Assembly (NCBI RefSeq): GCF_013122565.1
Contig: NZ_CP053258.1
Direction: 5' to 3' (one strand)
DNA length: 64,000 nt
Source: Escherichia coli
GTDB taxonomy: Bacteria > Pseudomonadota > Gammaproteobacteria > Enterobacterales > Enterobacteriaceae
Shown: piece by piece, positions 3,679 through 9,329 of the stretch
Layout: each line of letters begins with the position of its first letter
Numbering within the stretch: position 1 is the stretch's first letter
Notes under the pieces: generated by a model
The model's database searches: none
What the model saw: only the letters and a program-made list of their open reading frames with translations
What the model was told of the DNA's origin: nothing
Program-made: the position numbers and the translations under genes

Positions 3679-3927
3679 GGCCTTTCCTTATAGCCGGTCA
3701 GTGCATTCACCACCACAAGCAGATAATAACTTTATCTGTATTTCTTTATATGATGTGAGCATATTCAGGAAAAATGACCTTTCCTGAGGTACAGTTGCTC
3801 GCTCAAAACCTTTGATTACTGCGGATAAAGTCATCTACTATTGTTTAACACATTCACGCGCTGCATGTATGTTCGGAAAATGTGCACGCTAAGATAATTA
3901 AACAAAATTGTGGTTACAGAGGTATCA

Positions 3928-5181
3928 GTGAGTCACTGGGCTACATTCAAACAAACAGCAACAAATTTATGGGTGACCCTACGGCACGACATGCTCGCGC
4001 TGGCCGTCTTTTTAAATGGATTGCTTATTTTTAAAACAATCTATGGTATGTCGGTCAATTTGCTTGATATTTTCCATATTAAAGCATTTTCAGAGCTGGA
4101 TCTCTCCTTGCTGGCAAACGCCCCACTATTTATGCTCGGCGTATTTCTTGTCCTGAACTCCATTGGCTTACTGTTCCGGGCAAAGCTCGCATGGGCAATC
4201 AGTATCATTTTGTTGTTGATAGCGCTAATTTACACCCTGCATTTTTATCCGTGGCTGAAATTCAGTATTGGATTTTGCATTTTTACGCTGGTGTTTTTGC
4301 TGATACTGCGCAAAGACTTCTCCCACAGTAGCGCCGCAGCCGGGACAATTTTCGCATTTATTAGTTTCACGACGTTACTGTTTTACTCCACCTACGGTGC
4401 GCTTTATTTAAGCGAAGGTTTTAATCCGCGAATAGAAAGTTTGATGACCGCGTTCTATTTTTCAATAGAAACCATGTCAACCGTCGGCTATGGCGATATT
4501 GTCCCTGTTTCTGAGTCAGCACGATTGTTCACTATTTCGGTCATTATTTCCGGCATTACCGTTTTTGCCACCTCTATGACCTCAATTTTTGGTCCGCTTA
4601 TCCGCGGGGGATTCAACAAACTTGTAAAAGGAAACAATCATACAATGCATCGTAAAGATCATTTTATTGTTTGCGGGCATTCGATTCTCGCCATCAATAC
4701 GATTCTGCAACTGAATCAACGCGGACAAAACGTAACGGTTATCAGCAACTTGCCTGAAGATGATATCAAGCAACTTGAGCAACGCTTAGGCGATAACGCT
4801 GATGTTATCCCCGGTGACAGTAATGACAGTTCAGTATTAAAGAAAGCGGGAATCGATCGTTGCCGGGCCATTCTGGCGCTGAGTGATAACGATGCAGATA
4901 ACGCGTTTGTTGTACTCTCGGCAAAAGATATGAGCAGTGATGTTAAAACAGTTCTCGCCGTCAGTGATAGCAAAAACCTGAATAAGATTAAGATGGTACA
5001 TCCGGATATCATTCTCTCACCGCAACTGTTTGGCAGCGAAATTCTGGCGCGAGTTTTAAATGGTGAAGAGATTAATAATGATATGCTCGTTTCAATGTTG
5101 TTGAACTCCGGTCATGGCATTTTCAGCGATAACGATGAACAAGAAACGAAAGCTGACAGTAAAGAATCGGCGCAAAAATAG
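3928..5181 (+). CDS. kch: Kch potassium channel homologue (417 aa, GTG start; track ORF begins at 3910)
   Basis: TM core with pore signature TVGYGD and C-terminal RCK/TrkA-like domain; sequence recognised as Kch. Confidence 0.93.
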   Translation: MSHWATFKQTATNLWVTLRHDMLALAVFLNGLLIFKTIYGMSVNLLDIFHIKAFSELDLSLLANAPLFMLGVFLVLNSIGLLFRAKLAWAISIILLLIALIYTLHFYPWLKFSIGFCIFTLVFLLILRKDFSHSSAAAGTIFAFISFTTLLFYSTYGALYLSEGFNPRIESLMTAFYFSIETMSTVGYGDIVPVSESARLFTISVIISGITVFATSMTSIFGPLIRGGFNKLVKGNNHTMHRKDHFIVCGHSILAINTILQLNQRGQNVTVISNLPEDDIKQLEQRLGDNADVIPGDSNDSSVLKKAGIDRCRAILALSDNDADNAFVVLSAKDMSSDVKTVLAVSDSKNLNKIKMVHPDIILSPQLFGSEILARVLNGEEINNDMLVSMLLNSGHGIFSDNDEQETKADSKESAQK

Positions 5182-5235
5182 AGTTTAAAGACGGAAGAGT
5201 AAACTTATTGGGCACCGCAATGGTGCCCAGTACAT

Positions 5236-5409
5236 TTAGATATTGTAGATCGCAAACAATAACGAGTTACGCTGTTTGTTTAGAATGCACTTCCTGATGC
5301 TGTGGATACGCATATTTCGGCGCGATTGCCCCTCAAGCCAACGCGATTTACGTCGGCTAGCCTGACGCTGCATGCGCCAGCGCCCCACTTCCGTTCTACT
5401 CCGCTTCAT
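5236..5409 (-). CDS. yciY: Small basic protein (57 aa), YciY-like
   Basis: ATG at 5409; MKRSRTEVGRWRMQRQASRRK arginine-rich product; I recall a small annotated gene at this position between cls and kch in K-12 but cannot verify. Confidence 0.4.
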   Translation of the reverse strand: MKRSRTEVGRWRMQRQASRRKSRWLEGQSRRNMRIHSIRKCILNKQRNSLLFAIYNI

Positions 5410-5551
5410 GTTAACTACTCTATGCAATAACAGAATGGTCATTATACCCCCGCCCCCGACGCTGACCAGTGCTTTTCCCGCGTTTTTATTTGCCAGATGA
5501 ATCCATATGCGTAAACTCATAACAATGCGCTTTCAAAAGGATTTCTAATCT

Positions 5552-7376
<1,825 letters not shown>

Positions 7377-7405: not shown

Positions 7406-8275
7406 TCACATCCGCTCTTCATTTTCCACATCTACCTTTTCCCTCCCCAGTTCATTGCCACAAATACGACAATACTTCGCATCCTGTGCATGATTTTGGG
7501 TATTGCATTTAGGACAACAGAGAAGTTTTTTAGTCTGTTCAAGTTCGCTGGTGAGTTGCGCAGTAATAATCCCCGTCGGAATTGCAATGACTGAGTAGCC
7601 AATTAAGATTAATACTGAGGCCACCATCCTTCCTGCCTCTGTATGCGGCGTAATATCCCCATATCCAACGGTAGTCACAGTCACTATCGCCCAGTAAACC
7701 GCTGTACCCAACGAGTTAAATCCGTTTGATGCGCCTTCTATAGCGTACATTAACGCCCCAGCGACGATCATCACAATTGCAATAAATGCATAAAAAAGAA
7801 TCAACTGATGTCGGGCATTTTTTATCGCCCGCCATAAACTGTTTAAGGCAGGCATAAAGCGAAGCAGGCGCAAAATTCGCAACGCGCGAATAGCTCTCAT
7901 CGCTCGCCAGGCAAATAAATAAGTAAAACCAATTTCAGGCCATAGCCACATAACATACAGCGGCAAAATGGTGGTCAGATCGATAATTCCCCAAAAGCTA
8001 AAAACATAACTTACCGGATTCGGCCAGCTTAATATCCGCAGGAAATACTCGATGGTGAAAATTAAGGTAAAGAAGAGTTCCACCCAGACAAAGATATGCC
8101 ATTCGTCGTAGGTTAACTGAAATTGCGATCCAATACCGGATTCTATGAAAACAACGCCAACACTTAACAATGCGAGAAAACCAAACAGCGCCTCGCATCG
8201 TCTACCGGTTTTTGTATGCCGATCAAAAAGAAAATGATAAAACCGCTGACGATAGCCTGAAAGTTGTCCTGTCAC
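7406..8275 (-). CDS. Kv-type voltage-gated potassium channel (6 TM, charged S4, TVGYGD pore) with C-terminal zinc-ribbon tail
   Basis: 289-aa ORF; S4 motif RAMRAIRALRILRLLR with R every third residue; selectivity filter TVGYGD; C-terminal CPKC-x12-CRIC; GGGAGG SD 5 nt upstream of GTG start. Confidence 0.8.
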   Translation of the reverse strand: MTGQLSGYRQRFYHFLFDRHTKTGRRCEALFGFLALLSVGVVFIESGIGSQFQLTYDEWHIFVWVELFFTLIFTIEYFLRILSWPNPVSYVFSFWGIIDLTTILPLYVMWLWPEIGFTYLFAWRAMRAIRALRILRLLRFMPALNSLWRAIKNARHQLILFYAFIAIVMIVAGALMYAIEGASNGFNSLGTAVYWAIVTVTTVGYGDITPHTEAGRMVASVLILIGYSVIAIPTGIITAQLTSELEQTKKLLCCPKCNTQNHAQDAKYCRICGNELGREKVDVENEERM

Positions 8276-8324: not shown

Positions 8325-9329
8325 TTATAACGGATCGACTTTCAGGCAAGAAACGGCGTGTCTGAAACTCCCCTCCAGCACAGGACGTGTTTTGGCACAC
8401 TCCGGACCGGCAATCGGGCAACGGGTACGGAAAACACAACCGGAAGGCGGGTTGATCGGCGACGGTAATTCCCCTTCCAGTAACTGGATGGTTTTGTTCT
8501 TCTCCAGATCCGGATCAGGTATGGGGACTGCCGACATCAATGCCCGGGTGTAAGGATGTAGTGGATTGTGGTAGACCTCATCATAGGTCCCCAGTTCTAC
8601 CGCATGGCCGAGATACATCACTAACACACGATCGGAAATGTGTTTTACCACGGCCAGGTCGTGAGCGATAAAAATTAATGACAATCCCATCTCACGTTGC
8701 AACTGCTGGAGCAGGTTGACCACCTGCGCCTGAATTGACACGTCCAGCGCCGACACCGGCTCATCACAGATAATCAGCTTCGGTTCAAGAATAAGAGCAC
8801 GAGCAATCCCGATACGCTGGCACTGCCCACCGGAAAATTCATGCGGATAGCGGTTAATCAGGTTAGGCAATAACCCGACTTTCAGCATCATCGCCTTCAC
8901 GCGCTCGCGAACTTCCTGGCGTGACATTTTCGGATGATAGGTACGCAGCGGTTCAGCGATAATCTCACCGATGGTCATACGCGGGTTTAGTGATGCTAAC
9001 GGATCCTGGAAAATCATCTGAATATCACTGCGAACGGCACGCCATTCATCGGGCTTCATGCCCAGCAACTCTTTACCTAACCAAGCAACATGACCGTCGG
9101 TCGCCTTGACCAAACCGATGATGGCGCGAGCAAAGGTGGACTTACCGCATCCCGATTCCCCTACCACACCTAATGTTTCCCCTTCATACAGGCGAAGAGT
9201 GACACCATCGACGGCTTTGAGCGTTTTCGGCGGTTGCCAGAACCACTGCTTGCCATCTTTGATTTCAAAGTGCACTTTTAGATCGGCGATTTCGAGGAGG
9301 ACTTTTCTTCCTTCGGTTACAGCATTCAT
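8325..9329 (-). CDS. oppF: Oligopeptide ABC transporter ATP-binding protein OppF
   Basis: 334-aa ORF with Walker A GESGCGKST and ABC signature LSGGQCQR. Confidence 0.96.
   Translation of the reverse strand: MNAVTEGRKVLLEIADLKVHFEIKDGKQWFWQPPKTLKAVDGVTLRLYEGETLGVVGESGCGKSTFARAIIGLVKATDGHVAWLGKELLGMKPDEWRAVRSDIQMIFQDPLASLNPRMTIGEIIAEPLRTYHPKMSRQEVRERVKAMMLKVGLLPNLINRYPHEFSGGQCQRIGIARALILEPKLIICDEPVSALDVSIQAQVVNLLQQLQREMGLSLIFIAHDLAVVKHISDRVLVMYLGHAVELGTYDEVYHNPLHPYTRALMSAVPIPDPDLEKNKTIQLLEGELPSPINPPSGCVFRTRCPIAGPECAKTRPVLEGSFRHAVSCLKVDPL

Follow-up and report, generated by a model that had tools for sequence, protein, structure and literature searches.

The arginine-rich 57-codon reading frame between kch and cls in Escherichia coli: annotation, translation, conservation, and possible partners of YciY

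The short arginine-rich reading frame between kch and cls in Escherichia coli is very probably (we put the probability at about 0.9) yciY, a real, translated, and conserved gene that had already been annotated. We analyzed it within a 64,000-nucleotide stretch of contig NZ_CP053258.1 (assembly GCF_013122565.1), hereafter called the window, to whose positions all coordinates refer unless K-12 is named. In strain 7/2, yciI and kch are followed by yciY (on the opposite strand), cls, and yciU. yciY is already known in the sense that it carries an annotation, NCBIfam and Pfam each define a family for it, and its translation has been shown by experiment; the partner of its product is a matter of more tentative readings, of which binding to a structured RNA ranks first.

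Identity and family of the reading frame

The initial annotation, which was made from the sequence alone, described a highly basic 57-aa ORF on the minus strand between kch and cls. Translating positions 5236 to 5409 on the minus strand recovers the same peptide, MKRSRTEVGRWRMQRQASRRKSRWLEGQSRRNMRIHSIRKCILNKQRNSLLFAIYNI, encoded by 57 codons followed by TAA (ATG at 5409-5407, TAA at 5238-5236), in a 370-bp spacer flanked by kch (plus strand, ending at 5181) and cls (plus strand, 5552-7012). With 13 Arg, 4 Lys, 2 Glu, and no Asp, the peptide is indeed highly basic: over its 57 residues, it has a net charge of +15, a pI of approximately 12, a GRAVY of -1.14, and a mass of 7.1 kDa. Rare Arg codons (AGA, AGG, CGA, and CGG) can be read directly from the sequence. 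The length of the ORF is by itself within chance expectation, as each start in a random sequence has a probability of approximately (61/64)^57 = 0.065 of opening a run of 57 codons, and the opposite strand of the kch-cls spacer also holds two 42-codon ORFs. Given this unremarkable length, the question of yciY is decided by comparative and experimental evidence, and we assign the coding sequence (5236-5409, minus strand) on the basis of its translation, RefSeq annotation, the match to NF033701, intact loci in other genomes, dN/dS, and the TetRP start site.

The peptide also displays a possible internal repeat of approximately 12 to 13 residues, xRW[RL][ME]x..Q.SRR[KN], at residues 9 to 21 and 22 to 32 (window positions ~5314-5385). 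If real, this repeat, which is too short for statistics, would suggest that an RW...SRR motif was duplicated in tandem.

The statement in the initial annotation that a small gene named yciY occupies this position in K-12 proved accurate. RefSeq lists "yciY: YciY family protein" in all sampled E. coli records, and the kch-cls spacer is present at an identity of at least 95% in 5422 of 5426 complete E. coli genomes. Relative to K-12 yciY (b4595), the window gene has the same length, the same position between kch and cls, and an identical nucleotide and protein sequence, as judged against the ORF listed in the TetRP table (PMC4909307). The window protein matches NCBIfam NF033701 ("YciY family protein") at 109.8 bits (E value of 5e-32; the curated cutoff is 30 bits), with residues 1 to 55 aligned to a 56-position profile, and its relatives in databases carry the precomputed Pfam label PF26518 ("YciY"). 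The window ORF does not differ from the gene that defines this family: the family core, M[KR][RH]S[RK]xEV[GAS]RWRMxRQ...RWLExQSR, is present in its stand-alone frame of ~57 aa, and the divergent members of the family retain this core.

A protein search recovered 128 YciY relatives, in the genera Citrobacter, Salmonella, Kluyvera, Enterobacter, Yokenella, Trabulsiella, Cronobacter, Atlantibacter, Leclercia, Cedecea, Buttiauxella, Klebsiella, Raoultella, and Rouxiella. When 1.84 billion representative proteins were searched with a profile, 39 matched, and since all of these are no longer than 95 aa, except for a spurious 819-aa repeat protein, the family appears to be small and never fused to a further domain; by the same searches, it appears to be confined to the Enterobacterales.

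Records bearing YciY but labeled Chryseobacterium sp. and Listeria monocytogenes were also encountered (locus L074, CACSKA010000003.1; protein P0043). The L074 locus has a clsA/yciU context of the Enterobacteriaceae type, and these labels therefore probably reflect contamination or mislabeling in public assemblies.

Beyond its own family, YciY has no apparent match. Against a copy of Pfam-A from which PF26518 is absent, the window protein had no match at an E value of ≤1, and four of its relatives, searched at E values of ≤10, produced nothing significant (all E values of ≥0.16). PHROGs likewise gave nothing significant, and a sequence profile search of the PDB returned as its best match the N-terminal helix of mitochondrial uS14 (E value of 0.23, not significant), which we judged to be compositional. 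Homology to known ribosomal protein families was thus not found in the PDB profile and Pfam searches. Comparing the single-helix model (see below) with the PDB by Foldseek produced no matches, which is unsurprising for an isolated helix.

Translation and coding conservation

YciY has been shown to be translated from its annotated ATG. Nakahigashi et al. (2016) reported a tetracycline-arrested initiation peak at K-12 coordinate 1306812 for the 57-aa ORF, with a TetRP signal (192.4) comparable to those of yneM/mgtS (209.5) and yncL (159.1), and their chromosomal yciY-Venus fusion, which served as a positive control, was fluorescent in both LB and minimal medium (PMC4909307). In Supplementary Table 1 of the PIRT-Seq study, yciY falls in the "TIS-riboret" class, which denotes detection by in-frame reporter-transposon fusions and in the Ribo-RET dataset, not in the proteomics set (PMC12350097). 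Its lack of detection by proteomics would be expected, as trypsin would cut a peptide that is 30% Lys/Arg into very small pieces. Ribosome profiling, one of the two checks proposed in the initial annotation, is therefore positive by both TetRP and Ribo-RET, to which the Venus and transposon reporter fusions can be added (PMC4909307, PMC12350097). Two other sources, the supplements of a Salmonella small-protein census and the main text of a paper on stress-induced small proteins, do not mention yciY.

To characterize conservation of the frame, we scanned one genome per species, which returned 309 stretches encoding a YciY relative, and analyzed the best 80 of these, representing ~20 named genera; substitution statistics are based on the 78 distinct nucleotide sequences among the 80. 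An ATG start followed by an uninterrupted 57 or 59 codons is present in all 80 loci. Among the 78 sequences, the mean entropies of the first, second, and third codon positions are 0.33, 0.20, and 1.07, respectively, and 51 of 55 third positions are variable. The second check proposed in the initial annotation, codon-level conservation across the Enterobacteriaceae, was likewise borne out, with a pooled Nei-Gojobori dN/dS of 0.076 (dS of 1.34, dN of 0.10). This value is within approximately threefold of that of clsA in the same 78 genomes (0.024), and constraint is stronger in codons 1 to 41 (0.051) than in the C-terminal third (0.118). The yciY frame is also the only one open throughout all 78 sequences: both alternative frames on the same strand contain stops in 78/78, and each frame on the opposite strand contains stops in 53 to 77 of the 78. 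These substitution patterns argue for strong purifying selection on the amino acid sequence of YciY, rather than on a DNA or RNA element.

An antisense ORF was considered and rejected. Frame 2 of the opposite strand has a dN/dS of 0.23, a value that is expected where the third codon positions of an antisense frame coincide with those of yciY, but it is interrupted by stops in 72 of the 78 sequences.

We give scarcely any credence to the view that the ORF is incidental, i.e., that the region is conserved as noncoding DNA or RNA, such as a cls regulatory region or a small RNA, and that the peptide is functionless. Its position in an intergenic spacer beside the cls promoter would suit this explanation, as would a frame length that is not improbable by itself, but the codon-periodic variation, the freely varying third positions, and the low dN/dS run contrary to the pattern that conservation at the DNA or RNA level would produce. 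Moreover, Rfam has no match in the kch-cls spacer (two weak matches elsewhere are at chance level), and translation has been shown by four methods. The suggestion in the initial annotation that the composition could equally be that of a chance ORF is accordingly rejected, as both the codon-level conservation and the published evidence of translation exceed what chance would provide.

Third-position variability is unusually low in codons 1 to 5 of yciY (window positions 5395-5409, minus strand), and the third base of the rare AGA at codon 5 is invariant across genera, whereas the majority of the remaining Arg codons are free to vary there. Such a pattern may stem from selection on how translation is initiated or from an effect of the rare codon.

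Start site, promoters, and gene neighborhood

Upstream of the yciY start codon, a weak Shine-Dalgarno-like AGAGT can be read from the sequence (5417-5421, minus strand), 8 nt 5' of the ATG; its AGAG is kept in most genera, and the TetRP table gives a Shine-Dalgarno free energy of -3.0 kcal/mol for yciY (PMC4909307). Farther upstream is a sigma-70-type promoter (5441-5468, minus strand) with a -35 element of TGGTCA (5468-5463), a 16-nt spacer, and a -10 element of TATAAT (5446-5441), matching 10 of 12 consensus positions in a consensus scan. The TATAAT is invariant in the alignment of the best 80 of 309 loci and lies 29 to 31 nt 5' of the yciY ATG in 75 of 85 loci. From this arrangement, we infer that transcription starts near positions 5434 to 5436 and produces a leader of approximately 27 nt. 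A structured 5' leader was considered and rejected, its predicted fold being no better than that of shuffled sequence (z of -0.85). Back to back with this promoter is a promoter-like site for cls (5490-5517, plus strand; -35 TTGCCA, -10 TAAACT), which matches 9 of 12 consensus positions and whose corresponding blocks are kept in the same 80-locus alignment. The remaining conserved blocks of the spacer correspond to this promoter-like site and to the ribosome-binding site and start codon of cls.

On the other side of yciY, where it converges with kch, a GC-rich hairpin, GGGCACC/GGTGCCC (5210-5228), lies between the two stops, with a folding energy of -17.7 kcal/mol on the minus strand (z of -4.4) and -19.9 kcal/mol on the plus strand (z of -4.9). 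It looks like a terminator shared by kch and yciY; a terminator scan did not call it, and it has no clear U tract.

Many automatic gene callers predict a longer, 94-residue product that begins at an upstream ATG (window position 5520), and in the window the frame is indeed open up to this point, with forms of 93 to 96 aa called in Klebsiella, Trabulsiella, and others. That this longer form is the real product is nevertheless very unlikely. The extension is poorly conserved, with conservation starting abruptly at Met38, which is the annotated Met; in 65 of 85 loci, the extension is interrupted by an in-frame stop; it contains the conserved TATAAT promoter; and the TetRP start is the annotated ATG. 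The 93- to 96-aa calls among the sequences that we collected (P0001, P0046, P0075, P0090, and P0107) extend across window positions 5410 to 5520 (minus strand), a segment that overlaps both the promoter of yciY and the promoter region of cls and that shows no conservation at the protein level. These calls are a recurrent start-site misannotation in public data.

The pairing of yciY with clsA is constant in the loci examined. In all of the best 80 of 309 loci, as in the window, yciY is divergent from clsA at a distance of ~140 bp, and three distant members of the family are also divergent from a 486-aa cardiolipin synthase of the PLD type, with an unknown 244-aa protein, yciI, or a chemoreceptor as the other neighbor. 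Among the 80 loci, the gene on the other side of yciY is kch only in Escherichia and is yciI or inserted genes elsewhere.

Considered on its own, kch (3910-5181, plus strand) is situated between yciI and yciY in the Escherichia loci only; in other genera examined, yciI is usually directly convergent with yciY or different genes are inserted. kch looks like a lineage-specific insertion at the yciI-yciY junction.

Another channel-like gene is present on the far side of cls. Between yciU and oppF lies a 289-aa ORF (7406-8275, minus strand; named "ion transporter" in RefSeq) that resembles an ion channel and ends in a C-terminal zinc-ribbon motif. Of 5426 complete E. coli genomes, just 3 contain a full-length match to it, and these come from two pigeon isolates and one frog isolate. 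The adjoining end of oppF (from position 8325) is approximately 89% identical to that of most E. coli, unlike the kch-yciY-cls spacer, which is 100% identical to that of ordinary strains. This suggests either a recombination mosaic or an ancestral gene that mainstream E. coli has lost. Where the window has this ORF, Citrobacter loci have a Kch-like match. A subthreshold match to Rfam RF00485, "Potassium channel RNA editing signal" (7555-7669, minus strand; 23.4 bits versus a gathering threshold of 51, E value of 0.36), falls inside the ion-transporter ORF and probably represents a resemblance among channel-gene coding sequences, or chance, and not an editing element.

Predicted helix and possible partners of YciY

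AlphaFold2, supplied with a 31-sequence alignment, predicts that YciY forms a single uninterrupted helix spanning residues 5 to 56 (mean pLDDT of 90). We looked in this helix for the segregated hydrophobic face that characterizes membrane-binding amphipathic helices and found none: the hydrophobic moment of residues 5 to 56 is 0.218, compared with 0.168 ± 0.085 for shuffled sequences (z of 0.59), Arg occurs at nearly all angles of the helical wheel, and mean hydrophobicity over residues 1 to 40 ranges from -0.6 to -1.1. A hydrophobic transmembrane segment, which is a trait of type I toxins and small membrane proteins, is also absent, as indicated by the negative GRAVY; hydrophobic residues run together for at most 9 positions, in SLLFAIYNI at the C terminus. 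The invariant positions (S4, E7, V8, R10, W11, R12, M13, R15, and Q16 in the first part and R23, W24, L25, E26, Q28, S29, R30, I35, and R39 in the second) are spread over all faces of the wheel, and exchange of Arg for Lys is rare among relatives, the Arg-to-Lys ratio in the window protein being 13:4. YciY as modeled is thus a highly cationic, non-amphipathic helix.

The gene has its own promoter and is transcribed divergently from clsA. In the mechanism that we propose for its product, a helix with a charge of +15 would be unstable alone and would probably dock onto a polyanionic partner, and conservation all around the helix would imply that this partner envelops YciY. It is possible, and we suggest it tentatively, that the partner is a structured RNA, either rRNA in the ribosome or an mRNA, by analogy with arginine-rich-motif (ARM) peptides and the extensions of ribosomal proteins. 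RNA is ranked first on account of the missing hydrophobic face, the preference for Arg over Lys, and the all-around conservation.

The likeness to ARM peptides such as lambda N and HIV Rev is meant as a functional analogy only. YciY and these peptides both are short, helical, Arg-dominated segments with Trp and Gln, both would be unstructured or unstable without a polyanion, and both strongly prefer Arg over Lys. ARM peptides, however, have no sequence homology to YciY (in PHROGs, Pfam, or PDB), and YciY stands alone as a 57-aa protein whose C-terminal tail is hydrophobic, for which RNA binding would be an analogy drawn from composition and helix prediction. YciY is similarly comparable in size, charge, and helical character to bL34, bL36, Sra, and the N-terminal helix of uS14, with the marginal uS14 profile match noted above, but its codon usage is of a rare-codon, low-expression type and its range is limited to the Enterobacterales. 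Some points count against an RNA-type reading: core ribosomal proteins do not show rare Arg codon usage like that of yciY, a role connected with lipids would explain the constant pairing with clsA no less well, and YciY appears to match nothing beyond its own family.

The main rival holds that the Arg/Trp helix binds membrane rich in cardiolipin or phosphatidylglycerol, or ClsA itself, and thereby adjusts cardiolipin synthesis or senses how much cardiolipin is present. Anionic lipids are known targets of RW-type cationic peptides, the yciY and cls promoters are back to back, and yciY stays paired with clsA (in the best 80 of 309 loci and the three distant members) while its other neighbor varies. 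We regard this rival as doubtful, as the helix has no hydrophobic face by either moment or mean hydrophobicity, and invariant polar residues on every side suggest a specific enveloping partner and not a lipid surface. The adjacency can also be plain vertical inheritance, with yciU-cls-yciY-yciI forming a syntenic block, and the two promoters fill the 140-bp spacer, which leaves little room for insertions. AzuC, which is amphipathic and acts at the membrane surface, offers a partial parallel as a small, basic, helical protein encoded beside a membrane-enzyme gene, but YciY has no amphipathic hydrophobic face and is far more highly charged. Still narrower, and in our view rather unlikely, is the proposal that YciY serves the cardiolipin pathway as a dedicated partner, binding cardiolipin or ClsA and regulating the synthesis or localization of cardiolipin; in the literature on clsA and a small protein, we found no functional link between the two.

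As a discovery, yciY matters little, given that the gene is annotated, its families are defined, and its translation has been shown. If it were indeed a cardiolipin-pathway partner, YciY would constitute a previously unrecognized small-protein regulator of membrane lipid composition. In any case, its strong constraint, extreme composition, and lack of separation from clsA in the loci examined make it a cheap and well-defined target for functional work.
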